64,000 nucleotides of DNA, taken from positions 193,526 to 257,525 of the forward strand of contig WGMN01000001.1 in the NCBI GenBank assembly GCA_016125035.1, read 5' to 3'. The notes under the pieces are model-generated. The model was not told where the DNA came from. It did not search any database and worked only from the letters and a program-made list of their open reading frames with translations. The position numbers and the translations under genes are program-made. The stretch comes from Pseudomonadota bacterium. Its GTDB lineage: Bacteria > Pseudomonadota > Alphaproteobacteria > UBA2136 > UBA6156. Of this stretch, positions 9,128-62,559 are shown one piece after another (positions within the stretch are counted from its first letter, which is position 1; each line of letters opens with the position of its first letter).

Positions 9128-9135
9128 GGGCGCAC

Positions 9136-9170
9136 TGTAACCCGTAACCCGGGGCCCGTAACCCGTTATG
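9136..9170. repeat. 35-nt heptamer-periodic element (CGTAACC-type, five units), flanked by the inverted repeat GCACTG...CAGTGC.
   Basis: The sequence reads tgtaacc cgtaacc cggggcc cgtaacc cgttatg. It is 34/35 identical in pattern to the copy at 57012-57046. It lies 9 nt upstream of the rlmJ start codon. Confidence 0.7.
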
Positions 9171-9783: not shown

Positions 9784-11523
9784 TTAACGGTGCCATTCTT
9801 CCGACAGGGTTTGCCACGATTGGCCCTGGACGTGGATGGCGTGCCAGAAGGCCAGCAGGGTGAGGCTGAGCGCCAGGTTGGCGGACTTGGCGTGGGCGAG
9901 GTTGCCGAGCAGTTTTTCAGCCGCGTGGGGGTGGAGGATTTGGGTGAGGATGGGGCTGGTTTGCCAGAGCGCGGCGAGGCGCTCTTTTTTATGGGCGAGG
10001 AAGCTGCCCACCGCCACCGAGAAGCCCTGCTTGCGCGCCCAGGCGAGTTGCGACTGGCCTTGCGCGGCGAGGTGCTGGCGCAGGATGAGCTTGCCGGCAT
10101 CTGGGCGGACTTTGAATTCATCCGGCAGCGAGAAGGCCCATGCGGCGAAGGTGTCATCCAGGTAGGGCACGCGGCCTTCGATGCCGTGAGCCATGGTGGT
10201 GCGGTCTAGCTTTAAGAGCAGGTCGTTGGGGAGCCAGCCCGCGACATCCTGCCCCTGGCGGCTTTGTAGTTTGGTGAGGCCGCGGGTGGGCCAGGGTTGC
10301 TCTGGCGGCGGAGGCGTGGAGACGTTGATCTGGAACAGCGACTGGAAGGGCGCGGCATCGCCGCTGCGGCGGGCTTTGAAGTAGCTGAGCAGGTTGGGCT
10401 TTTTGCGGTAGGCCGGGTAGCCGGCGAGCATTTCATCACCGCCCTCCCCCGAGAGCAGGATCTTCACGTCCTCACGTGCGCGGGCGGTGAGCTTGAGCAG
10501 TGGCAGGGCGGCGTAGTCTGTCGCCAGGTCATCCATCGCCCAGGCGAGTTTGGGGAGCATTGGCCAGAAGTCGGATTCATCATAGGGCACGGTGGTGTGG
10601 GTGGCGCCGATGCTTTGCGCGAACGAGGCGGCGATATCGGCCTCATTCACCCCGCCTGCCACCATGATGCGCGCGGTGTAGGCGTGCACCGGGGCGCCTA
10701 AGCTCCGCATGGCGAGGGTGACGGCAGTGCTATCCAGCCCGCCGGAGAGCAGGATGCCGTAGGGGACATCGGCCTGCAGGTGGCGGCTGACTGCGGCGGT
10801 GAGCTGCTCGTTGAAATCGTGATTCGTTATTCGTGATTCGTTATTCGTAACTGGGTTGAGGGGGGGCAATTTACGGCGGCGCATGATGATCTTGCCGTGG
10901 CGGACGGTGAGCCTCTCGCCCGGCAAAAGGCGGTGGATGTTTTTGAACAGCGTTTGGCTGCCGGTGGAGTAGTGCCGGTTGAGCAGTTGCGGCAGCACCG
11001 TGAGGTTGGGCTCGGCGCGCACCCAGCCGGCGGCGAGGATGGCTTTGGGCTCGGACGCGAAAATGAAACCGAGATTGGTTTCGGCATAATAAAGCGGTTT
11101 GATGCCGAAGGGATCGGTGGCGAGGTAAAGCGTTTCTGTTGCGCCATCGGCCAGGGCCAGGGCGTACATGCCCTGTAGCTCTTCCAGCGCCCCTTCCCCG
11201 ATTTGGGTGAAGCGGTGCAGGGGTGGTTCGCTATCCGACGCGGTGTGCAGGCGGGCGCCGTTTTGGGTGGCGAGGGTTTGCAGCGCTTTGTAGTTGTAGA
11301 TTTCGCCGTTCACCACGATGGCGGTTTTGCCTGCGACAAGGGGTTGGCGGCCGCCCGAGATATCGATGATGGAAAGGCGGCGGTGGGCGAGGCCGAGGCT
11401 GGCGTGGGTGAAGGTGCCTTCGCCATCTGGCCCGCGGTGGGCCAGCGCGGCGAGCAAAGGGGCCAGATGTTTGGCCGTGGCCTTTTGGCTTTTGATGAGA
11501 CTGACGCCGGCGATTCCGCACAT
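9784..11523 (-). CDS. asnB: Asparagine synthetase (glutamine-hydrolysing).
   Basis: It begins MCGIAG, the N-terminal Cys nucleophile. It has the glutamine amidotransferase class-II domain plus the synthetase SGGLDS motif. An embedded heptamer element encodes TNNESRITNHD. Confidence 0.85.
   Translation of the reverse strand: MCGIAGVSLIKSQKATAKHLAPLLAALAHRGPDGEGTFTHASLGLAHRRLSIIDISGGRQPLVAGKTAIVVNGEIYNYKALQTLATQNGARLHTASDSEPPLHRFTQIGEGALEELQGMYALALADGATETLYLATDPFGIKPLYYAETNLGFIFASEPKAILAAGWVRAEPNLTVLPQLLNRHYSTGSQTLFKNIHRLLPGERLTVRHGKIIMRRRKLPPLNPVTNNESRITNHDFNEQLTAAVSRHLQADVPYGILLSGGLDSTAVTLAMRSLGAPVHAYTARIMVAGGVNEADIAASFAQSIGATHTTVPYDESDFWPMLPKLAWAMDDLATDYAALPLLKLTARAREDVKILLSGEGGDEMLAGYPAYRKKPNLLSYFKARRSGDAAPFQSLFQINVSTPPPPEQPWPTRGLTKLQSRQGQDVAGWLPNDLLLKLDRTTMAHGIEGRVPYLDDTFAAWAFSLPDEFKVRPDAGKLILRQHLAAQGQSQLAWARKQGFSVAVGSFLAHKKERLAALWQTSPILTQILHPHAAEKLLGNLAHAKSANLALSLTLLAFWHAIHVQGQSWQTLSEEWHR
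10818..10852. repeat. 35-nt heptamer-periodic element (CGTGATT/CGTTATT-type, five units) inside the asnB CDS, in frame.
   Basis: The units are cgtgatt cgttatt cgtgatt cgttatt cgtaact. On the coding (minus) strand it translates to ...TNNESRITNHD... without a frameshift. Confidence 0.75.
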
Positions 11524-11556: not shown

Positions 11557-12912
11557 CTAGCGGCTGAAGCTGCGGCGCGGGCGACCGCCGAAGGAGCGGT
11601 TGCCGCCACCGCCGTGGCTGTTGCCGTGGGTGCGCCCGCCCTGGTGTTGGCCCTGGCCGCCGCCGCTGTTGCCGCCGTGGTTACCCTGCGAACGTGCCGG
11701 GCGTTGGCCGCGCTGTTTGGGGCGGCCCGGAGGCGCCTCGGCGGAGACGATGCGGCGGAAATCGGCCTCGGTGAAGGAGGATTCCAGGCCTTCTATCTTG
11801 CTGAAGGTGAAGGGTTTGCCCAGGCGTTTTTCGATATCGCGCAGCAAGGGGAGATCGGGCGGGGAGACCAGCGAGATGGCCACGCCCACCGCGCCGCCGC
11901 GGCCGGTGCGGCCGATGCGGTGGGTGTAGTCTTCCGCCAGGTTGGGAAGATCATAATTGATGACGTGGGAGAGGTTCTTCACGTCGAGCCCGCGTGCGGC
12001 GACGTCGGTGGCCACCAGCACCTTGAGGCGCCCGGCGTGCAGACTATCCAACGTGCGCTTGCGTTGGTTCTGCTTCATGTCGCCGTGCAGGGCGCCGGTG
12101 GAGAAGCCTTGCTGTTGCAGCTTTTTGGCCAGCCTATCCGCCCCGTGCTTGGTGGCGGAGAAGATGATGACCTGGTCGACATCGTTTTGCTTGAGCAGGT
12201 GCGAGAGCATGTTCTGCTTATGGTCGGTGTTATCCACATGGAAGACGTGCTGGGTGATGGCCGAGTGGTCTTGCTTGGCGGCGGCGAGCTGGGCGCGGTG
12301 CGGATTTTGCAGGGTGCGCGAGGCGACCTTTTCCACCTCGGGGCTGAAAGTTGCCGAGAACAGCAGGATTTGCGGGCGCGAGGGCAGCGCGGCGATGATC
12401 TTTTCCACCGGTTTGAGGAAGCCCATGTCGAGCATGCGGTCGGCTTCGTCGAGCACCAGGACTTCCACGCGGGAGAAATCCACGCGCCGTTCGTTCATGT
12501 GGTCGATGAGGCGGCCGGGGGTGGCGACGAGGATATCCAGCGGCCGGGAGAGCAACTGGTACTGCGGGCCGTAGCCCACCCCGCCGATGACCACCCCGCT
12601 GCGCACGGAGAGGTGTTTGCCGAAGAGTTTGAGGTTATCCATGCATTGCTGGGCAAGTTCCCGCGTAGGCGTAAGCACCAGCACGCGCGGGCCGTGGCCC
12701 TGGCGGGCGCTGGGGCCGGAGACGACGCGTTGCAGGCACGGCAGCACAAAAGCCGCCGTTTTGCCGGTGCCGGTTTGCGCGCAGGCCATGACATCCTTGC
12801 CCTGCAAAATGGCCGGGATGGTTTGCGCCTGGATGGGGCTGGGCGCGGTGAAGCCGGCATCTTGAATAGCCTGGAGGATGGCAGGCTTGAGGTTAAACGA
12901 CGTGAAGCTCAT
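11557..12912 (-). CDS. rhlE: ATP-dependent DEAD-box RNA helicase (RhlE-like) with an RGG/Gly-rich C-terminal tail.
   Basis: The Q motif, Walker A AQTGTGKT, DEAD, SAT and HRIGRTGR motifs are all present. The C-terminus is low-complexity and rich in G, R, N and Q. Confidence 0.9.
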   Translation of the reverse strand: MSFTSFNLKPAILQAIQDAGFTAPSPIQAQTIPAILQGKDVMACAQTGTGKTAAFVLPCLQRVVSGPSARQGHGPRVLVLTPTRELAQQCMDNLKLFGKHLSVRSGVVIGGVGYGPQYQLLSRPLDILVATPGRLIDHMNERRVDFSRVEVLVLDEADRMLDMGFLKPVEKIIAALPSRPQILLFSATFSPEVEKVASRTLQNPHRAQLAAAKQDHSAITQHVFHVDNTDHKQNMLSHLLKQNDVDQVIIFSATKHGADRLAKKLQQQGFSTGALHGDMKQNQRKRTLDSLHAGRLKVLVATDVAARGLDVKNLSHVINYDLPNLAEDYTHRIGRTGRGGAVGVAISLVSPPDLPLLRDIEKRLGKPFTFSKIEGLESSFTEADFRRIVSAEAPPGRPKQRGQRPARSQGNHGGNSGGGQGQHQGGRTHGNSHGGGGNRSFGGRPRRSFSR

Positions 12913-49517: not shown

Positions 49518-50285
49518 ATGGGGATGAGGTGCTTTGCGATTTTACTGGCTTTGGTCATGCCGTTGGCCGCCCATGCGGCGGTGCCGGCCAGCGGCCGGGT
49601 GGCCAAGGTGATTGACGGCGACACGGTGGTTTTGGCCAGCGGTGAGCATGTGCGCCTTTTGGACATAAACACGCCGGAGATTGGGCACGATGACGAACCG
49701 GATGAACCGGGTGCGCGTGCGGCCAGTGTGGCGCTGCGGAACATGGCGCTGGGCAAGGACGTGAAGCTGGTTTACGGCCCGCAGGAGTACGACCAGTATG
49801 GACGGCTTCTGGCGCATCTTTATTTACAGGACGGAAGTTGGGTGAATGGGGAGCTTGTGGCGCAAGGTTTGGCGCATATTTACACCTTTGGCGACAATGA
49901 ATTGAAAACCGCGCAGCTTTTGCCGCTGGAAGAGAAGGCGCGGGCAGAGAAAAAAGGGTTGTGGGCGCTGCCGCAATGGCGCGTGTTTGATGCGGCAAGT
50001 TGTTGTGGGGACGGGGAAATTGGGCGGTATATTCTGGTGAAAGGCAAGCCGTTGGCGGTGGTGGTTAAAAAGGATGAGACGTATTTTAACTTTGGGCCGG
50101 ATTTCCGCACTGATTTTACCGTGGAGGTGGAAAAGAAGGACATGCGCTGGTTCAAGAAAGCCGGAATTAAGGATTTGGCGGCTTATTATGGCGGCAAGGA
50201 GCTGCTGGTGCGCGGCAAAACCGCGCCGGTGAACGGCGTTTTGATGCGGGTGACGCACCCCGCGCAGATTGAAATTGTGGAATGA
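49518..50285 (+). CDS. Secreted thermonuclease (staphylococcal nuclease/SNase homolog).
   Basis: A signal peptide MGMRCFAILLALVMPLAAHA is followed by the SNase motifs VIDGDTVVL and VRLLDINTPE. Its stop lies 4 nt before the mutS start. Confidence 0.85.
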   Translation: MGMRCFAILLALVMPLAAHAAVPASGRVAKVIDGDTVVLASGEHVRLLDINTPEIGHDDEPDEPGARAASVALRNMALGKDVKLVYGPQEYDQYGRLLAHLYLQDGSWVNGELVAQGLAHIYTFGDNELKTAQLLPLEEKARAEKKGLWALPQWRVFDAASCCGDGEIGRYILVKGKPLAVVVKKDETYFNFGPDFRTDFTVEVEKKDMRWFKKAGIKDLAAYYGGKELLVRGKTAPVNGVLMRVTHPAQIEIVE

Positions 50286-50289
50286 TATC

Positions 50290-52998
50290 ATGGCAGTAGC
50301 GGATAGCCCGGTGATGAAGCAATACCAGGCGGTGAAGGCACAGTACCCGGATGCGGTGGTGATGTTTCGCATGGGAGATTTTTACGAGATGTTTGGGCCG
50401 GATGCTTTGCAAGCATCTGAAATACTGGGGATAACTTTGACCAAGCGGCGCACCGCGCAGGCGGGAGATGAGGGCGTGCCGATGTGTGGCGTGCCCTACC
50501 ATGCAGGTGAGGGGTATATTGGCAAGTTGTTGAAACATGGCGTGAAAGTTGCGCTGGCCGAGCAGGTGGAGAGCCCTGAGGCGGCCAAAAAAGCGCGGGG
50601 TTCCGCCGCCATTGTGCGGCGGGAGGTGGTGCGGCTTTATACGCCGGGGACGCTGACGGAAGAGGCTTATCTGGTTGATAAGACGCCAAGTTATTTAGTG
50701 ACGGTGTGTGACGACAGAGGGGCGGCAAAAGGCGGCGAAACGCTGCAAAACGCTGCAGTGGAGCGGCAAAAAGGCGGCAACGGCGCGGCGGCAGGCGGCG
50801 GAACACTGCAAAGCGCGGCGGCGCGCTGGGAAGGTGTGGTGGCGTGGCTGGATGTTTCCACCGGAGAAGTGGGGTGGCGCAGTGTGACCGGCGCGAGTTT
50901 GCCGCAGGTGCTGGCGGCGCTGCCGGTGGGCGAGACGGTGGTGCCGGGCACGCTGGAAGACACCGTGTGCGCGTGGCTGCCGCGGCGCCAGGTGAGTGTG
51001 CATGACGGCTTGTTTGCGCGCAGCAGCGCGGAGAGTGCCCTGGCGCGGGCTTATGGTGTGCAGGAAGTGGGTGGATTAGGCCTGACCAGCCCCCACGCAG
51101 TGCAGGCGGTGGGCGCGCTGGTGGGTTATGCCGAATTGACGCAGATGGGCAAGTTGCCGCGCCTGATGAACCCGCGCGAGGTGAGTGGGCGCGCGCGGCT
51201 GGCGATGGATGTTTCCACGCGCAGGAATTTGGAACTGACCGAGAGTTTAAGTGGGCGGCGTGCCGACAGTTTGCTGGGTGTGCTGGACCGCACCGTGACC
51301 AGTGCGGGCGGGCGTTTGCTGGGGCGTTGGGTGGCCGAGCCGTTGGCGAATGTGGGAGAGATAAAGGCGCGGCAGAATGCCGTGGGTGTGCTGGGGCAGG
51401 GTGACAGGGTCTCAGGATCTCAGGATCTCAGGGGGCGGGTGCGGGAGTTGCTGAAGGACACCGGCGATGTGGCGCGTTGTGTGAGCCGGTTGTTGCTGGG
51501 GCGTGGCGGACCAAGGGACCTGGCGGTGTTGCGCGGCACCGGTGCGGTGCTGCCGGAGCTGGCCAAGGTGTTGCAAGGATGCGAAGGATTGCTGGCTGAG
51601 CAGGCGGTTGGGCTGAACGGATTGGGCGAGCTGACCGCGTTGCTGGAACGCGCGCTGGCGGATGACCCCCTGCCCGCGCTGGTGCGCGATGGTGGGTTTA
51701 TCCGCGAGGGGTTTGACGGGGAGTTGGACGGCTACCGCAAACTTTCCACCGATGGCAATGCGTTGCTGGCGGCACTGGAAGAAAAGGAAGCGCGCGGTTG
51801 CGGCATGGGGGCCAAACTGCGTTTTAACCAGGTGTGGGGGTATTATCTGGAAGTGACCAAGGTGCAGATGGGCGGGGGGAAAACCCCTGACCATTGGGTG
51901 CACCGCCAGACCACCACGCAAACCCACCGCTACACCACGCCGGAATTGATGGTGTTGGAGCGCGAGCTGGGCAGCGCCGGGGCCAAGGTGCAGCGGCGCG
52001 AAGAAGAGCTTCTGGCCGAACTTTTGGAAGCGGTGAAGGCAGCCAGTTATGCGCTGCTGGCGGCGAGTGAGGCGTTGGCGGTGCTGGATGTGGTGGCCAC
52101 GCTGGCCGAGGTGGCGGTGCGGCTGGGCTGGATTTGCCCGCTGGTGGATGACAGCGAGGCCTTTGCGGTTGAGGGCGGCAAGCACCCGGTGGTGGCCGCG
52201 CGGGTGAGCGATTTTGTGGCCAACGGTTGCGACTTGAGTGGTGGCCAGTTGTGGTTGCTGACCGGCCCGAACATGGCGGGGAAGAGCACTTTTCTGCGCC
52301 AGAATGCGTTGATCCTGATCCTGGCGCAGATGGGGAGCTTCGTGCCCGCAGTGAAGGCGCATGTGGGCGTGGCGGATGCGGTGTTCTCCCGCATTGGTGC
52401 GGCGGATGACTTGGCCGCCGGGCAGAGTACGTTCATGGTGGAGATGGTGGAGACCGCGGCGATTTTGAACCGTGCGACCAGCCGCAGTTTGGTGATTTTA
52501 GACGAGTTGGGGCGGGGCACCGCCACCTATGACGGGTTGGCGATCGCGTGGGCGTGTGTGGAAGACGTGGCCGGGCGCATTGGTTGCCGCACGCTGTTTG
52601 CCACCCACTACCATGAGCTGACGGCGTTGCAGGCGACGTTGGAGCGCGTGAGTTGCTGGCAAGTGGCGGTGCGGGAATGGAAGGGGGAAATTGTTTTCCT
52701 CCACGAGGTGAAGCCTGGTGCGGCGGCGGGGAGTTACGGTGTGCAGGTGGCGAAGCTGGCGGGGGTTCCGCAGGGTGTGGTGGCGCGGGCACAGGGGTTG
52801 CTGGATGGATTTTTGAAAGTGGCGCATGGGCGGGGAGTGGCGCGCGTGGATGAGCTGAGTTTGTTTGCCGCGCCGGTGCGTGCGGCGGCGCGTGAGGAGA
52901 ATGAGATTGAGAAGCGGTTGAAGGGGATGGATGTGGATGGGTTGAGTGCGCGCGAGGCGCTGGAGGAGCTTTACCGGTTGCGGGGGATGGTGAATTGA
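50290..52998 (+). CDS. mutS: DNA mismatch repair protein MutS.
   Basis: The N-terminus is PVMKQYQAVKAQYPDAVVMFRMGDFYEMF. It has the Walker A GPNMAGKST and STFMVEM motifs, and a C-terminal dimerization region. There is a low-complexity insertion after the mismatch-binding domain. Confidence 0.95.
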   Translation: MAVADSPVMKQYQAVKAQYPDAVVMFRMGDFYEMFGPDALQASEILGITLTKRRTAQAGDEGVPMCGVPYHAGEGYIGKLLKHGVKVALAEQVESPEAAKKARGSAAIVRREVVRLYTPGTLTEEAYLVDKTPSYLVTVCDDRGAAKGGETLQNAAVERQKGGNGAAAGGGTLQSAAARWEGVVAWLDVSTGEVGWRSVTGASLPQVLAALPVGETVVPGTLEDTVCAWLPRRQVSVHDGLFARSSAESALARAYGVQEVGGLGLTSPHAVQAVGALVGYAELTQMGKLPRLMNPREVSGRARLAMDVSTRRNLELTESLSGRRADSLLGVLDRTVTSAGGRLLGRWVAEPLANVGEIKARQNAVGVLGQGDRVSGSQDLRGRVRELLKDTGDVARCVSRLLLGRGGPRDLAVLRGTGAVLPELAKVLQGCEGLLAEQAVGLNGLGELTALLERALADDPLPALVRDGGFIREGFDGELDGYRKLSTDGNALLAALEEKEARGCGMGAKLRFNQVWGYYLEVTKVQMGGGKTPDHWVHRQTTTQTHRYTTPELMVLERELGSAGAKVQRREEELLAELLEAVKAASYALLAASEALAVLDVVATLAEVAVRLGWICPLVDDSEAFAVEGGKHPVVAARVSDFVANGCDLSGGQLWLLTGPNMAGKSTFLRQNALILILAQMGSFVPAVKAHVGVADAVFSRIGAADDLAAGQSTFMVEMVETAAILNRATSRSLVILDELGRGTATYDGLAIAWACVEDVAGRIGCRTLFATHYHELTALQATLERVSCWQVAVREWKGEIVFLHEVKPGAAAGSYGVQVAKLAGVPQGVVARAQGLLDGFLKVAHGRGVARVDELSLFAAPVRAAAREENEIEKRLKGMDVDGLSAREALEELYRLRGMVN

Positions 52999-55227: not shown

Positions 55228-55852
55228 GTTTGAAGGCGGCCCAGCCGCCAAGCAGGGCCAGGATGACCGCCATGGCCAGCCACTGGATGGCGTAGCTGAG
55301 GTGGCGCAAGGGCAAAGGCAGGGCCGGCGGTTGCGCGACGGTGATGCCAGGTGTGGGGGTGGTGGTGAAGAGGTAGCTGGGGCCTAAAGTGGCGCTGGTG
55401 ATGAGACTGGGGTTGAGGAAGGCAAGGAGTTTGGGGTTGGTGGTGATATCGGGCCCGTGGAGCCAGCCGTGGCGTTGGGGAAAAGGTTGCGGAATGCCCT
55501 GCAAGGTGACGGTGCCGGAGGTGGTGAAAGAGGTGAAATCAGGGGCGGAAAGCGGCGAAGGGGTGGCGGGGGACCAGCCGCGGTCGATAAGCAGGGTGCC
55601 GGACGCGGCGGTGAGCGGTGTGAGGATGCGCCAGCCGATCTGCTCGGCGTTTTGGGGGTTGGGGCTGTTGGTGAGAGCCACGGTTTGGCCGTTGGCGAAA
55701 GTGCCGGTGACGGTGGTGGGCGGGCGGGCGGAAAATTCCGCCGCCTGGGCCAGGCGCTGGTGGTAGCGCGACCATTGCCAGTGGGCCAGGGCCAGCAGGG
55801 AGGCCTGTGCCGCGAGGAAGGCACAAAGCAGAAAAAGCTGTTTGCAGCGCAT
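55178..55852 (-). CDS. surf1: SURF1-family cytochrome oxidase assembly protein.
   Basis: An N-terminal TM plus LALAHWQWSRYHQ matches the GxWQxxR-like motif. The C-terminal YAIQWLAMAVILALLGGW motif and second TM are present. Its 3' end overlaps murJ by about 50 nt. Confidence 0.75.
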   Translation of the reverse strand: MRCKQLFLLCAFLAAQASLLALAHWQWSRYHQRLAQAAEFSARPPTTVTGTFANGQTVALTNSPNPQNAEQIGWRILTPLTAASGTLLIDRGWSPATPSPLSAPDFTSFTTSGTVTLQGIPQPFPQRHGWLHGPDITTNPKLLAFLNPSLITSATLGPSYLFTTTPTPGITVAQPPALPLPLRHLSYAIQWLAMAVILALLGGWAAFKPKAPPRRNHQKPRRAK

Positions 55853-57008
55853 GACGTACGTTGAGACATCTGCCAAGCTGTGGCAAGCTTACACAACAAA
55901 ATTTGAAGGGGAAGCCTTGGACGCACACGAACGCCGCGCGTTGCTACTGACTGCCGTTGTGCTGGGCGGGGCGGTGCTGTTTTTGCACGCGGTGAGCGAT
56001 ATTCTGCTGCCCTTTATTGTGGGGCTGCTGCTGGCCTACCTGCTGAACCCGGCGGTGGGCTTTTTGGAGCGGCGCGGCGTGCCGCGCGCACTGGCCAGCG
56101 TGGTGCCGGTGGGTGCCGCCGTGGCCTTGATTACCGCCGTGCTGGTGCTGGGCATGCCGCTGCTGATGGACCAGTTGAGCAGTTTTGCCCAGCGTCTGCC
56201 GGTTTACCTGATGACGTTGCAGCACTTTGTGATACCCGACAAGTTAAGCCGCGCCCTGCACTGGGACATGGACTTTGTGGCGTTGTTAAAGCCCCTGGGC
56301 ACCATTGGCGCGCAGGGCGCCGAGTGGACGGTGCAGGCGCTGCAAAAAACGCTGAGCGGTGTTGCCTGGCTGGTGAACGTGGCATTGTTGGTGCTGATGA
56401 CCCCGGTGGTGGCTTTTTATCTGCTGCTGGACTGGCCCAAACTGATGGAGAAGATTGTGAAGTTGTTCCCCAAGCGCTGGCGCCGCAACCTGCTGGAGAT
56501 TAACCGCGAGATTGACGTGAAGCTGGCCGCTTACCTGCGCGGCACGGTGGCGGTGTGCCTGAGCATGGCGCTTTATTACAGCCTGGCGCTTTCGTCCATT
56601 GGCATTGTCTCGACCTGGATGCGCGGCACGCCGGTATCCTCGCTTGAATTGGGCTGGGCGATTGGGATCGCTACCGGAGTGATGGCCTTTTTGCCGGTGA
56701 TCGGCGCGACCATTGGCGTGACCATGATGTTTGCGGTGGCGCTGATGCAGTACCAGTTGCTGGTGTGGGAGCCTTATGCGCTGATCGGCGGGTATTTTAT
56801 TGTCGGCCAGTTTTTGGAAGGCTACGTGATGCAGCCCTTGCTGGTGGGCCAGCGCGTGGGCCTGCACCCGCTGTGGGTTATTTTTGCCCTGCTGGCCGGG
56901 GGCACGCTGGCGGGCATTACCGGCATGTTGCTGGCGGTGCCGGTGGCGGTGGTGTTCTCGGTGTTGTTGCCGCGTTTGTTGCGCCAGTGGCGGGCGGCGA
57001 TAGATTAA
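55842..57008 (+). CDS. AI-2E family transporter (UPF0118/PerM-like).
   Basis: It has 8 TM helices and conserved motifs for the PerM/YhhT family. Confidence 0.8.
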   Translation: MQRMTYVETSAKLWQAYTTKFEGEALDAHERRALLLTAVVLGGAVLFLHAVSDILLPFIVGLLLAYLLNPAVGFLERRGVPRALASVVPVGAAVALITAVLVLGMPLLMDQLSSFAQRLPVYLMTLQHFVIPDKLSRALHWDMDFVALLKPLGTIGAQGAEWTVQALQKTLSGVAWLVNVALLVLMTPVVAFYLLLDWPKLMEKIVKLFPKRWRRNLLEINREIDVKLAAYLRGTVAVCLSMALYYSLALSSIGIVSTWMRGTPVSSLELGWAIGIATGVMAFLPVIGATIGVTMMFAVALMQYQLLVWEPYALIGGYFIVGQFLEGYVMQPLLVGQRVGLHPLWVIFALLAGGTLAGITGMLLAVPVAVVFSVLLPRLLRQWRAAID

Positions 57009-57011
57009 GAA

Positions 57012-57046
57012 CGTAACCCGTAACCCGTGGCCCGTAACCCGTTGGA
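57012..57046. repeat. 35-nt heptamer-periodic element (CGTAACC-type, five units).
   Basis: The sequence reads cgtaacc cgtaacc cgtggcc cgtaacc cgttgga, nearly identical to the copy at 9136-9170. It lies 3 nt after the AI-2E stop and 10 nt before the four-helix-bundle gene start. Confidence 0.7.
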
Positions 57047-57056
57047 GCTTTGAAGG

Positions 57057-57449
57057 ATGGCAGGTGAAAAATTAGGGTTTGCCAAGAACTTTGAAGATTT
57101 ACTGGTTTTTAAGCGGGCTTACAAAACTTCATTGGAAATACACCGCACAACTCTGACCTTTCCGGCCGCGGAACAACGCGGACTTGGTGAACAGATGCGG
57201 CGTGCCAGCAAAAGTATATGTGCCAACCTTGCAGAAGAGTTCGGTAAGGGGTCGGACAGTGCAGAGATGCGGCGGTTTACGCGCATTGGCTTAGGCTCTA
57301 GCGAAGAGATGAGGGTTTGGTTGCGTTACTGCCTGGACTTAAGACTTATTAATAAGACTGAGTGGCAAATGTGGCGCGACGAATACCACGCTATAAGCCA
57401 AATGTTACAAAAACTTATTGGGGCTATCAAAGCACCGGCTAAAAAATAG
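57057..57449 (+). CDS. Four-helix-bundle protein (TIGR02436 / 23S rRNA intervening-sequence protein family; Avd-like).
   Basis: The N-terminus has FEDLLVFKRAY, followed by RRASKSICANLAEEFGKGS, the typical family pattern. GC is lower than in the flanks. Confidence 0.7.
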   Translation: MAGEKLGFAKNFEDLLVFKRAYKTSLEIHRTTLTFPAAEQRGLGEQMRRASKSICANLAEEFGKGSDSAEMRRFTRIGLGSSEEMRVWLRYCLDLRLINKTEWQMWRDEYHAISQMLQKLIGAIKAPAKK

Positions 57450-57555
57450 TTGGTCGGGCGTTTGGCTGAAAGTTTGAGCAGGGTTGGCACCATATGCGGT
57501 TGGAGCCGCGGCCTAACCGGGGGTATAGTAAGCCAGCGTTGAAAGAAAGATAACC

Positions 57556-58152
57556 ATGCCGACGTTTTTGGGCTTTTTGAAGAACACCGTGACCGGTGAG
57601 GAGTTTGTGGCGCCGGTGGAAGCGCCCGAACGCGCCCGCGCCGAAGCAGGATTGCGCGACCAGTACCCCGCCGCGGCCTATGCCATTTTGACGGTTTACG
57701 AGCAGCGCGAAATGGAGCGCGTGATGGACGGTGTGCGGCGCTGGCCGGGGCTGGCCAGCAAGGTACAGCCCAAACTGGAAGATTTGTTTGCCAATGTGAG
57801 TGTGGCCCGCGCCCTGCCACCGCTGCACGGCCGCGCGCCCACCAAGCTGAACGCCACCCAAGCCCGCCTGGAACAAGTACGCACGATGGCGCGGGGCACG
57901 CACAAGGGCGTGCAGGAGTTGGTGGCGCGCCTGCTGGCCGCCGACCTGCAGGGAGATATCCGTTCCGCCAAGCCGGACAGCCATGCACGGATGGAGACGG
58001 TGAGCGACGCCCGGCCCAAGGCCAAGGTGCCTGCGGCGCCGGCGATACCCCCGGTGGCAATGGCCCCCCTGCCCGCCCCCGCCGCGCGGCAAGCCGCGCA
58101 GGCCGAGCGGCCCAGCCTGATTACCATGCTTAAGCAGATGAAGCAGGCTTGA
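57556..58152 (+). CDS. Hypothetical protein (198 aa) with an Ala/Pro-rich C-terminal region.
   Basis: The ORF is intact with a plausible -10 (tatagt) and RBS. No family could be assigned. Confidence 0.45.
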   Translation: MPTFLGFLKNTVTGEEFVAPVEAPERARAEAGLRDQYPAAAYAILTVYEQREMERVMDGVRRWPGLASKVQPKLEDLFANVSVARALPPLHGRAPTKLNATQARLEQVRTMARGTHKGVQELVARLLAADLQGDIRSAKPDSHARMETVSDARPKAKVPAAPAIPPVAMAPLPAPAARQAAQAERPSLITMLKQMKQA

Positions 58153-58155
58153 AGC

Positions 58156-58692
58156 TTGGGTAGAAAATACCTGCTGGTTCCCATCCCCAAAAATCCCTAC
58201 TCCCGTATAGGCCCACTGCGATGGCAGGATTGGTGGCGCCAGGTGGAAAAGACCTCATCGCTGGCACGAAAGCTAAAGGCCGAAGGCCATGAAACGTGGG
58301 TGGTGTTGCTTTCAGACTTCAAGCCTCGCGGAAAGTTGCCAGAGCTAGAGATTTACCAGCAGGCCTTTGCCCAGGTAGCCCCGGAACTTGAGGTGAAAGC
58401 GTATCGCGAAACCAACGATACGCTGGGCCAGGTGGAACGCAGCCTTGAGTTGCGCGATAAAGAACAGGCGGTGCTGGTTTTCGTCAGCGCGTGGATGCAG
58501 TATCCGCGGGTTGTCTACCTGGCCCGCAAAGAAGGCGCACGCCATTATGGCGTCTTCGGTATTCCCCAACCGGCCTTTGCGTTGATAGACCCTTTTTGCA
58601 TGCTGACCTACCCTTTGGTGGAATGGCTTGGGTTGGGCAGGTTTTTCCAGCGTATTCTTTTAAGACGGCGTGAAGAGGGCCGTATTCTCTAG
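58156..58692 (+). CDS. DUF218 (YdcF/ElyC-like) domain protein.
   Basis: The pattern is WVVLLSD...EIYQQAF...RETNDTLGQ...LVFVSAWMQYPRVVYLARKEG. This resembles the DUF218 core (SEA..M, sT.eN, VTsa.HmpRa). GC is lower than in the flanks. Confidence 0.45.
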   Translation: MGRKYLLVPIPKNPYSRIGPLRWQDWWRQVEKTSSLARKLKAEGHETWVVLLSDFKPRGKLPELEIYQQAFAQVAPELEVKAYRETNDTLGQVERSLELRDKEQAVLVFVSAWMQYPRVVYLARKEGARHYGVFGIPQPAFALIDPFCMLTYPLVEWLGLGRFFQRILLRRREEGRIL

Positions 58693-59750
58693 ACTTCATC
58701 CAGGCGGATGATGTGGGCGTGGGGCAGGGCCGGGGCCTCGGTATCGGTGAGCCAGACCTGGCAGCCGAGTTTGCCCAGGGTGGTGAGGAGCTGGCCGCGG
58801 CGCGCGGCATCCAGGTGGGCGGAGAACTCATCGATAAGAACCACCGGGGGCTGTTTAAGATGCGTCTTAAGCAGTTGGACGTGCGCCACCAGCCAATGGA
58901 TGAGGCCGCGCTTGTGTTGGCCGGAGGAAGCCTGCGCGAGTGTGGTGGTGGTGCCGTCTTCCAGCGTGAGGTGGCCGGTGACCTCCAGCGTGTTGGGGCC
59001 GGCGTGGGTGCGCTCCATGCGTGTGTCGATGTCGCGCGACCTTTCAAACTTGCCTTTGAGCGCCATGACCGGGTCGGCGTCCTCTAGGACCGCCAGCGCG
59101 TTACCGGCCAGCTGGAGCGTGAGAGAGCTGCCCAGGTGGGGCACCAGCGCGGCCAGATATTCTTGCCGGTGGCGCAACACCTGGATACCCCATTCCGCGC
59201 AGAGTTTCTCTTCAGCTTCCAGCCAGTCGTCGGCGCGGCCCTGCACCAGCAGCTTTAAGCGCGCCTGGCGGTGCTGGGCAAAGCGCGCCACCGCCTGTGC
59301 GTGGGCGGGGATGAGCGCGGTGGTGGCATCATCCAGCCAGCGGCGGCGCCCGGCGGGTGGGCCGGAAAAGAGGAAATCGGTGGCGGGGGTGAGCCACAGG
59401 ATGGTGTGGAGTTTGGCCAGGCCTTCCAGCGCCTGTTTGTGCCCGTCGACGTGGAGGAGGCGCTCGGCCTTGCGGAAGGTTTGGCCGATTTCGTGATCCG
59501 TGATTCGTGATTCGTGATTGGTGAACGCGGCCCACAGGCCCCATTCCTTCTGGCCGTGGCGGATTTGCGCTTTGCCTTCCGCACCCAGCAGGCCGCGGGT
59601 GGGGGTGAACAGCGACAAGGCCTCCAGCACAGAGGTTTTGCCCACGCCGTTGGGCCCCACCAGCGCCACCACCGCGGCGTTTTGCGGCACCGCAAGGGTG
59701 AGTGCCGCAAGGTTGCGGAAGTTGCTGAGCTTAAGCTGGGTGACGGCCAT
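58689..59750 (-). CDS. recF: DNA replication and repair protein RecF.
   Basis: It has Walker A GPNGVGKTSVLEA, the ABC signature and D-loop. It is collinear with E. coli RecF. An embedded heptamer element encodes TNHESRITDHE. Confidence 0.9.
   Translation of the reverse strand: MAVTQLKLSNFRNLAALTLAVPQNAAVVALVGPNGVGKTSVLEALSLFTPTRGLLGAEGKAQIRHGQKEWGLWAAFTNHESRITDHEIGQTFRKAERLLHVDGHKQALEGLAKLHTILWLTPATDFLFSGPPAGRRRWLDDATTALIPAHAQAVARFAQHRQARLKLLVQGRADDWLEAEEKLCAEWGIQVLRHRQEYLAALVPHLGSSLTLQLAGNALAVLEDADPVMALKGKFERSRDIDTRMERTHAGPNTLEVTGHLTLEDGTTTTLAQASSGQHKRGLIHWLVAHVQLLKTHLKQPPVVLIDEFSAHLDAARRGQLLTTLGKLGCQVWLTDTEAPALPHAHIIRLDEV
59492..59526. repeat. 35-nt heptamer-periodic element (CGTGATT-type, five units) inside the recF CDS, in frame.
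   Basis: The units are cgtgatc cgtgatt cgtgatt cgtgatt ggtgaac. On the coding (minus) strand it translates to ...FTNHESRITDHEIG.... Confidence 0.75.
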
Positions 59751-59756
59751 AAAAGA

Positions 59757-59791
59757 CGTTACTCGTGATTCGTGATTCGTGACTAGTGGTT
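59757..59791. repeat. 35-nt heptamer-periodic element (CGTGATT-type), beginning 7 nt upstream of the recF start codon.
   Basis: The units are cgttact cgtgatt cgtgatt cgtgact agtggtt. It occupies the position where a recF ribosome-binding site would be expected. Confidence 0.7.
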
Positions 59792-59897
59792 TGTGGGCAA
59801 AAAGGGGCGGCTTGCATGCCGCCCCCTGCCCACCAATTGAAGTTGTTTTTCCGGGCCGTTCTTCCCCTGCCCCGGCGCCCTTCTGTGTGGCGTGGCG

Positions 59898-61013
59898 CTA
59901 GACCCGCATCGGCATCACCACGAAGGTGGTGGAGCCGTCGGTTGGGTCTTTCACCATCACGGGTGAGGAAGCGTCCTTGAAGAAGAAAGTCATGTCGTCG
60001 CCGCTTACCTGGGTGCCGATATCGGCCAGGTAGCGGGCGTTGAAACCGATTTCCATTTCCGGGCCTTTGTAATCGGCCTTGACCTCTTCGCTGGCATTTT
60101 CCTGGTCGGGGTTGTTGGCGGACAGGGCCAGGGCGTTATCAATAACCCCAAAGCGCACCGAGCGGGTTTTTTCGTGGCTGAGGATGCTGACGCGGTCGAC
60201 CGCCTGGAGCAGGCTTTTGCGCGCCACGGTGAGTTGCGAGTTGTTGTCTTTGGGGATGACGCGGTCGTAGTCTGGGTAGGTGGCGTCGATGACTTTGCTG
60301 GTGAGCGTGATGTCGGTGGCTTCCGCCTGGATCTTTTTATCGCTGACGGTGAGTTTGATCTCCTTCGATTCGTCGGCGAGCTTCTTCAATTCGGTGACGC
60401 ATTTGCGCGGCAGGATGACCGAGGGCATTTCCTCGGCGGCGTCCGGGCAGGCAATTTCCGCCTTGGCCAGGCGGTGGCCGTCGGTGGCGACGGTGCGCAG
60501 GGTGGGTGTGCCGTCGACCTCCACCACGTGCAGGTAGACGCCGGTGAGGTAGGCGCGGGTTTCGTCTGCGCTGGCGGCGAATTGCACCTTATCCAGCAAT
60601 TTTTTCAGCTCGGCGGAAGGCAGGGTGAAGGTGACGCCGCCGTCGACCTTGGTCATGTCCGGGAAGGCATCCGCGTTAAGTGTGGCCAGGCTGAATTTGG
60701 CCTTGCCCGCGGTGAGCGCCAGGCGCGAGCCACCCTCGGTGGTTTCAAGGTTGACCATCACCCCTTCGGGGATCTTGCTGATGATCTCGAACAGTTTGAG
60801 CGCGCCGACAGTGGTGGTGCCGGTGCTATCCACAAAGGCCTCGGCCACGCCTTGCACGGCGAGGTCGTTATCCGTAGCTGTGGTTTCCAGCTGGTTTTTG
60901 CCGGCGGAGAGGCGGACGTTGCCGAGGATGGCGATGCTGGAGCGCTTTTCCACCACACTGCTCATGTGGCGGAGGGCGCGGAAGAGGGTTTCGCGTGAGA
61001 TGCTGAGTTTCAT
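59898..61013 (-). CDS. dnaN: DNA polymerase III beta subunit (sliding clamp).
   Basis: The N-terminus is MKLSISRETLFRALRHMSSVVEKR. It has the three-domain clamp architecture. The internal ATG was chosen. Confidence 0.95.
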   Translation of the reverse strand: MKLSISRETLFRALRHMSSVVEKRSSIAILGNVRLSAGKNQLETTATDNDLAVQGVAEAFVDSTGTTTVGALKLFEIISKIPEGVMVNLETTEGGSRLALTAGKAKFSLATLNADAFPDMTKVDGGVTFTLPSAELKKLLDKVQFAASADETRAYLTGVYLHVVEVDGTPTLRTVATDGHRLAKAEIACPDAAEEMPSVILPRKCVTELKKLADESKEIKLTVSDKKIQAEATDITLTSKVIDATYPDYDRVIPKDNNSQLTVARKSLLQAVDRVSILSHEKTRSVRFGVIDNALALSANNPDQENASEEVKADYKGPEMEIGFNARYLADIGTQVSGDDMTFFFKDASSPVMVKDPTDGSTTFVVMPMRV

Positions 61014-61092
61014 GACCCGGAGAATAGGCTTTTTGGCCGCGGACGCCAAGCGGGATGGCTAGATTGCGTGCAAAATGTCACGGCGGCAGGAA

Positions 61093-61128
61093 ACGGCGGG
61101 AAAAAACCGCCTGACGGCGGTTTTTTTA
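61093..61128 (-). terminator. Rho-independent terminator of dnaA. It is bidirectional, with an A-run, hairpin, then T-run.
   Basis: The sequence is aaaaaa-ccgcc-tgac-ggcgg-ttttttt. The dnaA stop codon lies within the T-run. Confidence 0.65.
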
Positions 61129-62559
61129 ACGGCCTTGCAGCGTGCGGGTGACCAGCTGGACCTGCTCGGCAAGCTGGGCGTCTCGCGGCAGCAGCGCGAC
61201 GATGGTCTCGCAGGCGTGGATGACGGTGGTGTGGTCACGCCCGCCGAACGCCCGGCCGATGTCCGGGTACGAGCGGCTGGTGAGCTGCTTGGCCAGGTAC
61301 ATGGCCACCTGGCGCGGGCGGGCCACCTCGCGCGCGCGGCGCGGGGAGTGCATGTCGGACACGCGGATGTTGAACTGAGTGGCGACCTTTTGCTGGATGT
61401 CATCGATGGTGATGACGCGGTTGTAGACGCGGAAGAGATCGCGCAGCTGGTCGCGGGCGAGGTCGGGCGTGAGGGCCTCGCCGGTGAGGCGGGCGTAGGC
61501 CACCAGGCGGTTGAGCGCGCCTTCCAGCTCGCGCACGTTGGAGGCGATCTGCGCGGCGAGGAGTTGCAACACCTCGGCCGGCACGGTGTAGCCCATGCTT
61601 TCCGCTTTGGATTGGAGGATGGCCAGGCGGGTTTCTTCTTCCGGGGCGTGCACCTCGACCGTGAGGCCGCTGCCCAGGCGCGACTTGAGGCGCTCTTCGA
61701 TGTTGGGAAGTTCGTGCGGGGACCTATCTGCCGTGAGCACCACCTGCTTGCCGGCCTGAATGAGGGTGTTGAAGGTGTGGAAGAACTCTTCTTGCGTGGC
61801 GTCCTTGCCGGCGATGAATTGGAGATCGTCGATCATCAGCACGTCGACCGAGCGGAAGAGCTCTTTGAAGCCGAGGGTGTTTTTATCCTTGAGGGCGCGG
61901 ATGAACTTGTAGAGGAACTGCTCGGCGGAAAGGTAGAGCACGTTGGTGGGTTTGCCAGATTCCAGCACCGCGTGGCCGATGGCCTGCATAAGGTGGGTTT
62001 TGCCCAGCCCCACCCCGCCGTGGAGGAAGAAGGGGTTGTAGGCGACCTTGCCCTGGGTGAGGGCCTCGGCCACGCTTTGCGCGGCGGTGAAGGCGAACTG
62101 GTTGGACTTGCCGGTGACGAACTGGTGGAAGCCGTAGCGCGCATCCAGGCGGCTGCCGGAGAGCCACTCCGGCGCGGCAGCCTCGGGCGCGGTGGGGGAC
62201 ATGACCGCTGCCTGAATGCTTTGCGGGGCAGAGGCCGACACGGCAAAGGTGGGGACGACTTGAAGCTCGATGGCGACCGGGCGGCCGGCCTGGCTGGAGA
62301 GTTGCTCTTCCAGCTGGGTGAGATAGTTGCCCCGGACCCATTGGGCAATGAAGGTGGTGGGAGCGGCAAGGGTGAGGGAATCGGCAGTGACGGCCTGAAC
62401 TTTGAGAGGAGCCAGCCAGGCGGCGTAGTTCTCATCGCCGAAGGTGGCGGGGAGAGTGGTTTGCAGGTCATCCCACAACAAGGCCAGCGGCGGCACCGCA
62501 CCGGCCGTGGCAGCGGATTTCCCTTGAACGGAGACGCCGGCAGCGGGGGCAGTGTGCAT
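61126..62559 (-). CDS. dnaA: Chromosomal replication initiator protein DnaA.
   Basis: It has the AAA+ Walker [14 protein letters not shown], box VII and sensor motifs. A C-terminal DNA-binding domain reads [24 protein letters not shown]. Confidence 0.95.

Follow-up and report, generated by a model that had tools for sequence, protein, structure and literature searches.

Bacterial arrays of heptanucleotide units have been on record from the time of the cyanobacterial STRR elements onwards, and the class of dispersed arrays of about four such units includes, besides STRR, GGGAATC in Xanthomonas (PMC4692102), GGGACCG in Geobacter (PMC2700814) and TAACTGA in Beggiatoaceae (PMC4679880). According to Mrazek et al. 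2007, as cited in two of these reports (PMC4679880, PMC4692102), heptanucleotides are the commonest class of long simple sequence repeats in many genomes that are large and GC-rich, their proposed cause is polymerase slippage with a 7-nt footprint, and units whose length is not a multiple of three are predicted to be excluded from genes. In the GGGNATC class the C-rich strand is present in the mRNA upstream of starts and the G-rich strand downstream of stops, and G-quadruplex formation has been proposed to explain the preference for four units (PMC4692102). TAACTGA repeats are found in marine Beggiatoaceae, cyanobacteria and some Bacteroidetes (MacGregor 2015, PMC4679880). The GGGACCG elements of Geobacter metallireducens, as described in the passages covered, comprise four tandem heptamers in tens of copies per genome, located in and between genes, and those passages report no in-frame peptide analysis (PMC2700814).

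The AATCACG repeat of the 64-kb stretch of DNA analysed here (the window) belongs to this class. Its copy in the asparagine synthase gene asnB consists of head-to-tail 7-nt units, all five arrays of the window have about four units, and the dispersed copies near ORF ends follow strand rules, all within 64 kb of genome. With the GGGNATC repeats of Xanthomonas and Nostoc (Rehm et al. 2015, PMC4692102) it shares the dispersed tandem 7-nt units with about four preferred, the heterogeneous units within arrays, the occasional intragenic copy and, for most copies, a distance of no more than about 50 nt from an ORF end, where orientation follows rules. Unlike GGGNATC, neither strand of AATCACG (CGTGATT) or AATAACG contains a GG run and the element cannot form a G-quadruplex, therefore it is filed in the broad heptamer-array class, outside the G-quadruplex subclass; in addition, the host here looks alphaproteobacterial. 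The TAACTGA repeats (PMC4679880) resemble it in forming arrays of 2-6 heptamers, often directly upstream of start codons, in their patchy distribution across phyla, and in the limit that stop codons set on the coding strand, a logic already stated in that work. The open strand of TAACTGA, however, encodes the hydrophobic LSVISYQ, whereas AATCACG encodes the hydrophilic NHESRIT, which may be the reason why AATCACG is tolerated in enzymes. The Geobacter elements have a different unit and were read as regulatory RNA elements (PMC2700814). Contrary to the prediction of Mrazek et al. 2007, steps of three units (21 nt) make heptamers compatible with coding here.

The host gene is a single open frame on the minus strand (9784..11523) that contains the array and encodes an intact glutamine-hydrolysing asparagine synthase of 579 aa. 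Its product matches the Pfam families GATase_7 and Asn_synthase, passes the cutoff of the NCBIfam asparagine synthase equivalog TIGR01536 (386 bits, cutoff 267), aligns with its orthologs, is 100% identical to the deposited NCBI protein (P0001), and conserves both the MCG start with the N-terminal Cys nucleophile and the LLSGGLDS motif of the PP-loop. The array occupies 10817..10851 (-), about 680 nt into the 1740-nt CDS and distant from any start or stop. A preliminary description had placed an in-frame heptamer element in asnB at 10818-10852; tandem repeat finding (TRF), the codon view and the intact CDS all agree with the element and its frame, and the location stands, with the coordinates shifted by about one base. 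Because the frame is continuous and conserved domains lie on both sides, the gene model also stands: asnB is not a pseudogene, and the region is not excluded from the CDS.

On the plus strand the array reads TCGTGAT (10817-23), TCGTTAT (24-30), TCGTGAT (31-37), TCGTTAT (38-44) and TCGTAAC (45-51), which amounts to approximately five tandem heptamers with the units TCGTGAT and TCGTTAT, or AATCACG and AATAACG on the sense strand (ACG AATAACG AATCACG AATAACG AATCACG AT). Over 10817-10848, TRF reports 4.6 copies with 88% matches at period 7, and 2.3 copies with 100% matches at period 14. The sense codons GTT ACG AAT AAC GAA TCA CGA ATA ACG AAT CAC GAT TTC are translated as V T N N E S R I T N H D F, in which TNNESRITNHD is encoded by 10816-10848, and the A-variant units are confined to the two phases with TAA out of frame. 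Domain alignments and a structural model place this peptide in the coil that links the glutaminase domain to the synthetase domain; the alignment to 1CT9 picks up again at NHDF, and in the AF2 model the coil spans residues 220-235 with a pLDDT of 81-86, against approximately 96 in the flanking blocks. The alignment with AsnB orthologs, which had been proposed as a check, shows a linker of 14 residues, the same as in the closest orthologs P0002-P0004 and P0006, within a range of 11 to 19 over all orthologs aligned. Thus, the array brings no net change of length relative to the closest orthologs, and it is absent from every AsnB ortholog aligned. A lookup of the exact AsnB protein returned no contig, hence no independent assembly of the asnB array was found.

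A second intragenic copy (59489..59525, (-)) lies in recF (58689..59750, (-); 353 aa), whose product scores above the TIGR00611 cutoff and has an identical counterpart in NCBI and in Logan. TRF, a tandem AATCACG search, the codon view and ortholog alignment define this array, which encodes TNHESRITDHE in the context F T N H E S R I T D H E and includes three exact AATCACG units at 59499-59519. The three-unit stretch is missing in all 21 orthologs aligned, and the recF array is a net insertion of exactly 21 nt (three units, +7 aa) that sits before GAT CAC GAA, where the closest ortholog has GAC CAC GAA. The two coding copies of the window thus differ, recF showing a net gain of 21 nt and asnB no net change in length. 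Their peptides have the core ESRIT-x-H in common, and orthologs of both proteins at 64-74% identity lack the array peptide. The near-identity of the two peptides and their common orientation on the coding strand were correctly recognised at the outset; the peptide proposed for both, NESRITNH, fits asnB exactly and differs from that of recF by one residue.

The agreement of asnB and recF in orientation and frame follows from arithmetic and stop codons. Since 7 and 3 are coprime, three heptamer units make seven codons, and therefore all three frames give the same cyclic heptapeptide NHESRIT, so consistent in-frame use is not a sign of selection for a frame, as had been suggested. On the opposite strand, (CGTGATT)n, each of the frames contains TGA (CGT GAT TCG TGA), which forces the sense orientation of AATCACG inside genes and deprives the shared orientation of its value as evidence. 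Pure (AATAACG)n runs into a stop as well (AAT AAC GAA TAA). Among 120 listed loci from other genomes, AATCACG is the sense strand in 34/34 stop-free frames that span AATCACG-type arrays, and for AATAACG-type arrays the opposite strand is sense in 2/2 spanning frames.

The window contains five period-7 arrays, three of them intergenic, and all five consist of ACG followed by about four units; tandem AATCACG occurs at three separate places. These arrays are not due to chance, as four period-7 runs were counted where 200 dinucleotide shuffles gave 0.36 on average. One intergenic array (59757..59788, (-); AGTCACG AATCACG AATCACG AGTAACG on the sense strand; TRF, sequence) is located 7 nt upstream of the recF ATG and downstream of a terminator-like hairpin of dnaN, and a distant relative (L122, 66% identity) keeps a two-unit CGAATCACGAATTACGAA at this site. 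The other two belong to a GGTTACG family and were likewise defined by TRF and sequence. The array at 9134..9169 (-), ACG GGTTACG GGCCCCG GGTTACG GGTTAC, lies 7 nt upstream of the ATG (9127) of an rlmJ-like gene, and the one at 57010..57044 (-), ACG GGTTACG GGCCACG GGTTACG GGTTACG, begins 2 nt past the stop of an AI-2E-type transporter gene (55842..57008, + strand); the two have 30/31 nt in common, including the odd second unit. The two arrays upstream of ATGs have the ACG strand as sense, and the one after the stop has the CGT strand as sense. An independent assembly of run SRR10063242 in Logan matches window positions 57014-61534, which include both recF-region arrays, at 100% identity; this contig ends at 57014 and probably comes from the same sample as the window assembly. 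The arrays match no curated covariance model in an Rfam scan of the window, where only two tRNAs reached the gathering score, and as sense RNA they fold worse than shuffled sequence. A replication-strand rule was also considered: the CGT strand is the G-rich plus strand in 5/5 window arrays, and elsewhere, in reverse of the window, the AATCACG-reading strand is more often G-rich (75 vs 45 listed loci), therefore no general rule of this kind applies.

A genome scan for AATCACG gave at least 120 matches in many phyla, and the cultured isolates among the matches listed include Xanthomonas codiaei, Lysobacter soli and Luteimonas. At least 12 unrelated, conserved proteins from other phyla have the repeat in frame, among them PurL, PrmC, a Ser/Thr kinase, NuoC/D, GlmS, a DinG-like helicase, a UvrA-like protein, FecR and an epimerase, as well as RibD, an S41 peptidase and an aminopeptidase, in which it lies near the N-terminus and there is doubt about the actual start codon. 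Of the AATCACG-type arrays sampled, about a fifth are in frame in conserved proteins, and PrmC with the repeat is exactly 7 aa longer than E. coli HemK. Of the two explanations offered in the preliminary description, a recurrent process that leaves translatable segments is the one that agrees with this recurrence. Array length has its mode at 30-32 nt among 61 AATCACG arrays of other genomes, which were chosen for at least three perfect units, and approximately 105 kb of syntenic DNA from relatives holds no array of three or more units. Orientation in other genomes varies with the proximity of ORF ends: 22 vs 4 and 37 vs 19 upstream of starts, the latter for AATCACG arrays on crude ORF calls, on which basis the division after stops is 31 vs 18. 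One Thermomonas locus (L060) mixes CGTGATT and CGGGATT units within a single array and links the AATCACG element to the Xanthomonas GGGAATC class (PMC4692102).

A special status of AATCACG as a pan-bacterial unit was considered and found no support, since in viral contigs scrambled heptamers are about equally frequent (ACATCAG x3, 13 stretches; AACGCTA x3, 5) as real units (AATCACG x3, 13; GGTTACG x3, 14; AATAACG x3, 19). Six copies of NHESRIT searched against 5.8 billion proteins matched six tiny hypothetical proteins, in a search where two-repeat matches cannot reach significance. The alternating asnB-type 28-mer matches metagenome contigs twice, each time between genes and upstream of an ATG, and was not found in the loci fetched from other genomes. 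An AATCACG dimer was found in none of the papers searched.

The asnB array is probably a passenger copy of a genome-wide heptamer family, with its orientation set by stop codons and with selection acting as a filter. A function of the array as a cis-acting element, for instance as a site where protein or RNA binds, as a group of clustered GANTC methylation sites or as a stretch of unstructured mRNA that is regulatory even within a CDS, is unlikely. Two of the three intergenic copies do lie 7 nt upstream of start codons and the third 2 nt after a stop, orientation in other genomes is tied to ORF ends as for GGGAATC (PMC4692102), and the two-unit remnant upstream of recF is kept in the distant relative. 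Furthermore, the window has far fewer GANTC sites than expected (49 vs 105 +/- 9.6), a strong avoidance, but 6/49 sites fall in the three AATCACG arrays. Against this reading, the asnB copy lies deep within its CDS and is absent from all aligned orthologs, and the second family, GGTTACG, has no GANTC. The AATCACG unit also occurs in phyla that are not known to use CcrM. Quite improbable is a phase-variation switch, in which gain or loss of one 7-nt unit would shift the frame and turn asnB and recF off until a further change restored it. Heptamer tracts are slippage-prone in principle, the recF array has three perfect units, and phase variation of the H. influenzae HMW adhesins is reported to be driven by 7-bp repeats. 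The arrays here, however, have only 4-5 units, that of asnB alternates two variants and is perfect at period 14 alone, with 2.3 copies, and both hosts are housekeeping genes rather than surface, virulence or restriction-modification genes. The recF region does not differ between its two assemblies, which probably derive from one sample, and in-frame copies in many other conserved enzymes fit passive tolerance better.

It is still less probable that the NHESRIT-type peptide is a selected protein module, favoured as a flexible linker, recognition site or cleavage site. Its hydrophilic character and its location in linkers and loops of many proteins would suit such a role, but the same unit is also non-coding in the window, it is conserved as DNA, with identical codons per unit, rather than as protein, its host proteins are functionally unrelated, and orthologs at 64-74% identity do without it. 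Chance similarity, an assembly artefact or a wrong gene model are hardly credible. The sequence comes from a metagenome-assembled genome, and ATCACG is a common Illumina index sequence; nevertheless, the shuffles yield far fewer runs than the window, the asnB frame is continuous between conserved domains, a second assembly is identical over the recF arrays, and AATCACG arrays are present in the cultured isolates named above.

For the passenger reading, the family would consist of short arrays at the DNA level, typically ACG(AATCACG)4 with about 4 units and a length of about 31 nt, located in and between genes, of which the asnB copy would be translated as the hydrophilic loop TNNESRITNHD in a length-variable interdomain coil. 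Selection would leave those intragenic survivors that are sense-oriented, located in loops and changed by a multiple of three in net length. The units would be added in blocks by a recurrent, lineage-specific process, such as polymerase slippage or template switching, either beside a proto-unit present by chance, as in recF, or in place of existing sequence, as in asnB, presumably without selection for the peptide. Two observations speak against simple slippage: a one-step gain of 21 nt from a single proto-unit is hard to explain, and asnB has a repeat of 33-35 nt at unchanged linker length, which needs replacement, or insertion together with deletion. The sequence of the odd second unit common to both GGTTACG arrays hints that a pre-formed block was copied, rather than grown in place. 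The intergenic orientation rules and the copy kept in the relative at 66% identity suggest that some copies may be functional, and the asnB copy itself may also have a function.

A bolder idea, with only a small chance of being correct, is that the arrays are footprints of an unrecognised block-wise DNA-writing process, for example template switching primed by microhomology, or synthesis on a template by a reverse transcriptase or a primase-polymerase. Blocks of approximately 31 nt, ACG(N4ACG)4, would in this way be deposited by the process at many chromosomal sites across phyla; it would be either adding sequence (recF and PrmC, exactly +21 nt beside a proto-unit) or overwriting it (asnB, length unchanged), and would continually seed new loops in conserved enzymes. 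Block-writing is mildly favoured over stepwise slippage by the four-unit mode without G-quadruplex potential, the shared odd GGTTACG unit, in-frame gains made in one step and the lack of arrays in relatives. The 31-nt GGTTACG element with its odd second unit, examined as a possible dispersed block, has no match in metagenome contigs.

To conclude, a preference for four units is seen here with a unit unable to form a G-quadruplex, and therefore the explanation of this preference by G-quadruplexes is weakened. As seven codons correspond to three units, steps of 21 nt allow heptamers to enter genes, and the +7 aa of recF and PrmC represent clean natural insertions for studying array formation. 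The unit sequence alone predicts the coding-capable strand, if any, and the likely tolerance of the peptide, of which the hydrophilic NHESRIT and the hydrophobic RYSLFVI are an example. Unrelated conserved enzymes from different phyla repeatedly have the NHESRIT-type peptide in a loop. In annotation, such segments should not be taken for frameshifts or pseudogenes.

The heptamer array inside asnB (10817-10851) reads TCGTGAT TCGTTAT TCGTGAT TCGTTAT TCGTAAC on the plus strand, and Tandem Repeats Finder describes it as 4.6 copies of period 7 (88% matches) or 2.3 copies of period 14 (100% matches). On the minus strand, the array falls within a single frame (9784..11523) whose 579-aa product starts MCG. 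This product differs at no residue from a deposited MAG protein, contains Pfam GATase_6/7 at residues 34-166 and Asn_synthase at 239-555, and scores 386 bits against a cutoff of 267 in the NCBIfam equivalog for glutamine-hydrolysing asparagine synthase. The asnB gene is intact, being neither a pseudogene nor a gene model without the region, and the in-frame placement proposed in the preliminary description is borne out by direct reading. The sense codons GTT ACG AAT AAC GAA TCA CGA ATA ACG AAT CAC GAT TTC give V T N N E S R I T N H D F; the two A-variant units occupy the two phases that keep TAA out of frame; where the remaining phase would read GAA TAA, there is a C (GAA TCA).

In an alignment of 25 AsnB sequences, the array-encoded residues form a weakly conserved stretch from the last glutaminase-domain strand to the first synthetase-domain helix, and the alignment with E. 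coli AsnB (1CT9) picks up again at NHDF. An AlphaFold2 model (mean pLDDT 91.8) renders residues 220-235 as coil with a pLDDT of 81-86, compared to ~96 in the flanking blocks. The linker ranges from 11 to 19 residues across all aligned sequences and measures 14 in the window, the same as in the closest orthologs (P0002-P0004, 71-74% identity) and in P0006, and because of this equal length the 33-35 nt of repeat represent no net insertion relative to the closest orthologs. The asnB copy is translated as part of a tolerant linker, and the gene around it is intact. The recF copy (59489-59525) differs in this respect, as an alignment of 22 RecF sequences reveals seven additional residues found in no ortholog. 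In the DNA, the gain consists of exactly 21 nt, AAT CAC GAA TCA CGA ATC ACG (59499-59519), followed by GAT CAC GAA ATC, and the most similar ortholog (P0129/L121) reads GAC CAC GAA CTC at that point, which indicates that the insertion adjoins a pre-existing proto-unit. A PrmC protein from another genome (L033) likewise has exactly seven more residues than E. coli HemK, right before the NPPY strand; both copies are clean +21-nt gains.

Since 7 and 3 share no common factor, it takes three units (21 nt) to fill a whole number of codons, namely seven, and (AATCACG)n yields the cyclic peptide N-H-E-S-R-I-T in any frame. A shared frame is thus uninformative, and the argument from consistent in-frame use in the preliminary description fails. 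The common orientation of the asnB and recF copies was correctly seen, and it is set by stop codons: the complement (CGTGATT)n reads CGT GAT TCG TGA and meets a stop in every frame from about three units on, while pure (AATAACG)n contains TAA and its complement stays open, encoding R-Y-S-L-F-V-I. This was checked on the 120 loci listed from other genomes, using array-spanning frames that run for 150 codons or more without a stop. Among these matches, AATCACG is sense in 34/34 frames spanning AATCACG-type arrays, the opposite strand is sense in 2/2 frames spanning AATAACG-type arrays, and 82 of 84 AATAACG-type arrays have no spanning frame. Stop codons constrain array orientation, which makes the shared orientation a necessary condition for any surviving coding copy; the same argument has already been made for TAACTGA repeats (PMC4679880).

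Four period-7 runs were found in the window by a fixed criterion, where 200 dinucleotide shuffles average 0.36, and a fifth, slightly weaker run lies at 9134-9169. Three arrays are of the AATCACG type, namely those in asnB and recF and one at 59757-59788 that stops 7 nt short of the recF ATG. The other two are of the GGTTACG type: 9134-9169 lies 7 nt upstream of the ATG of an rlmJ-like gene, and 57010-57044 begins 2 nt past the stop codon of the gene for an AI-2E-type transporter. On the minus strand all five consist of ACG followed by about four units, and AATCACG arrays among the matches listed from other genomes have a length mode of 30-32 nt, equal to ACG plus four units. The two GGTTACG arrays, 48 kb apart, are identical at 30/31 nt and share an odd second unit (GGCCMCG), which suggests copies of one block and not independent growth. 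The independently assembled Logan contig terminates exactly at the second of them (57014). All five arrays fold worse as RNA than their shuffled versions (z +1.1 to +1.9), and an Rfam scan gave no match at any of them; the heptamer repeat is a DNA-level family.

Arrays of at least three units are absent from ~105 kb of largely syntenic DNA of relatives (64-74% protein identity), which carries the rpsT-dnaA-dnaN-recF-transporter and asnB-osmC-rlmJ neighbourhoods, and richness in arrays is therefore lineage-specific. A two-unit remnant, CGAATCACGAATTACGAA, lies upstream of the recF ATG in the relative L122 (9961-9982; 66% RecF identity), in the same place as the window array 59757-59788, and the recF leader of L189 (~9950-9985) has a different 7-nt-periodic stretch, CTAACTC CCAACTG CTAACTC. 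The remaining spacer of this leader, from the dnaN terminator-like hairpin to the recF ATG, has conserved blocks. The leader copy may be older.

A scan for TCGTKAT x3 in one genome per species returned at least 120 matches, and those listed include Xanthomonadales, Saprospiraceae, Flavobacteriia, Chloroflexota, Acidobacteriota, Verrucomicrobiota, cyanobacteria, Patescibacteria and others, with cultured isolates among them. The loci of the matches listed hold 386 period-7 arrays, about 150 of which are those the loci were selected for, and no other period between 4 and 12 exceeds 53 arrays. Units including AATCCCG, AGTCACG and AATCACC occur alongside them. In Thermomonas (L060), CGTGATT and CGGGATT blocks take turns in one array, which connects the heptamer element with the Xanthomonas GGGAATC/GGGANTN repeats (PMC4692102). 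Very long composite arrays of up to ~290 nt, in L060 (2232-2508), L035 (Solirubrobacterales) and L057 (Burkholderiales), combine blocks of CGTGATT, CGGGATT and CGGGAGA, or alternate AATCACG with AGTCACG, switching units inside one array. Two Xanthomonadales loci (L004, 6428-6529; L011, 6507-6609) carry inverted array pairs 40-50 nt apart, e.g., GGGATTC... then GAATCCC..., which could form long hairpins; the window has none. In viral contigs, three-unit stretches numbered 13 for AATCACG, 14 for GGTTACG and 19 for AATAACG, and 13 and 5 for the scrambled controls ACATCAG and AACGCTA. These counts do not show AATCACG to be a special unit, as scrambled ACATCAG equals its count. All five counts are far above chance by a rough, uncomputed estimate, in line with the literature, in which heptamer arrays of diverse sequence are common (Mrazek 2007, as cited in PMC4679880).

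Pfam scans of the loci listed located in-frame repeats between AIRS_C and the PurM_N-like domain of PurL (L011), inside the methyltransferase domain of PrmC, inside the kinase match of a Ser/Thr kinase (L034), in the linker of a NuoC/NuoD fusion (L054), late in the glutaminase half of GlmS past the Pfam GATase match, within a ~27-aa insertion (L061), between domains of a DinG-like helicase (L101), at residues 292-308 of a UvrA-like protein (L093), between AAA_16 and TPR of a BTAD/TPR regulator (L009), at residues 80-100 of FecR (L058), as two arrays in UDP-GlcNAc 2-epimerase (L052), directly ahead of the core domain of a transglutaminase-like protein (L029), and near the N-terminus, with the true start uncertain, of RibD, an S41 peptidase and an aminopeptidase (L018, L032, L023). 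In-frame copies recur across phyla in unrelated proteins, in support of the earlier suggestion of a recurrent insertion that yields translatable segments.

Outside genes, a crude count of long ORFs close to arrays among the matches listed gave an ORF start within 60 nt downstream 37 times with mRNA reading AATNACG versus 19 for AATCACG arrays, and 22 versus 4 for AATAACG arrays; an ORF stop just upstream of AATCACG arrays occurred 31 times with mRNA reading CGTNATT versus 18. A matching orientation rule is reported for GGGAATC repeats (PMC4692102), the three intergenic window arrays obey it, and two metagenome matches to the alternating asnB-type array each lie directly upstream of an ATG. Orientation near ORF ends, together with these ATG-proximal matches, implies that some intergenic copies may have a role as RNA or DNA elements. 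These rules have no direct bearing on the asnB copy, 680 nt inside a coding sequence.

As to origin, the arrays would arise through a recurrent, lineage-specific process, and inside genes selection would retain only sense-oriented, 3n, loop-located copies. Stepwise slippage is the classical proposal; it would require two frameshifted intermediates for a 21-nt gain, and would leave the length-neutral replacement in asnB unaccounted for. A putative block addition or template switching would account somewhat better than slippage for the recF, PrmC and asnB cases and for the four-unit mode.

Several other features of the window were observed. All 2-kb bins of 1-64000 have positive GC skew (0.06 to 0.29), unusually strong and never changing sign, although dnaA (61126..62559), dnaN and recF lie on the minus strand at 58.7-62.6 kb; the C-rich strand carries the genes near dnaA. 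Two A-tract repeats of ~10-nt period, at 50721-50780 (GGCGGCAAAA x5.8) and 61080-61107 (ACGGCGGCAAAAA x2.2, minus strand, just upstream of dnaA), have helical phasing that suggests intrinsically bent DNA. A period-8 tandem repeat at 51404-51433 (CAGGGTCT CAGGATCT CAGGATCT CAGGG), in a 909-codon plus-strand open frame (50269..52998), could be another non-3n repeat in a possible coding sequence. Next to asnB, a 27-nt period repeat (11602-11666) encodes the Gly/Arg/Ser-rich C-terminal tail of a DEAD-box helicase (11557..12912, minus strand).

The asnB finding is real, yet it belongs to a class already known, the heptanucleotide long SSRs or STRR-like arrays. Modestly new are a non-G4 unit that retains the four-unit habit, an NHESRIT loop recurring in conserved enzymes, and the two clean +7-aa examples in recF and PrmC. 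GANTC is strongly under-represented in the window (49 sites versus 105 +/- 9.6 in shuffles), and 6 of the 49 sites fall inside the three AATCACG arrays (10821, 10835, 59502, 59509, 59767, 59774), at intervals of 7 or 14 bp; should the organism possess a CcrM-type methylase, they would be methylation clusters.
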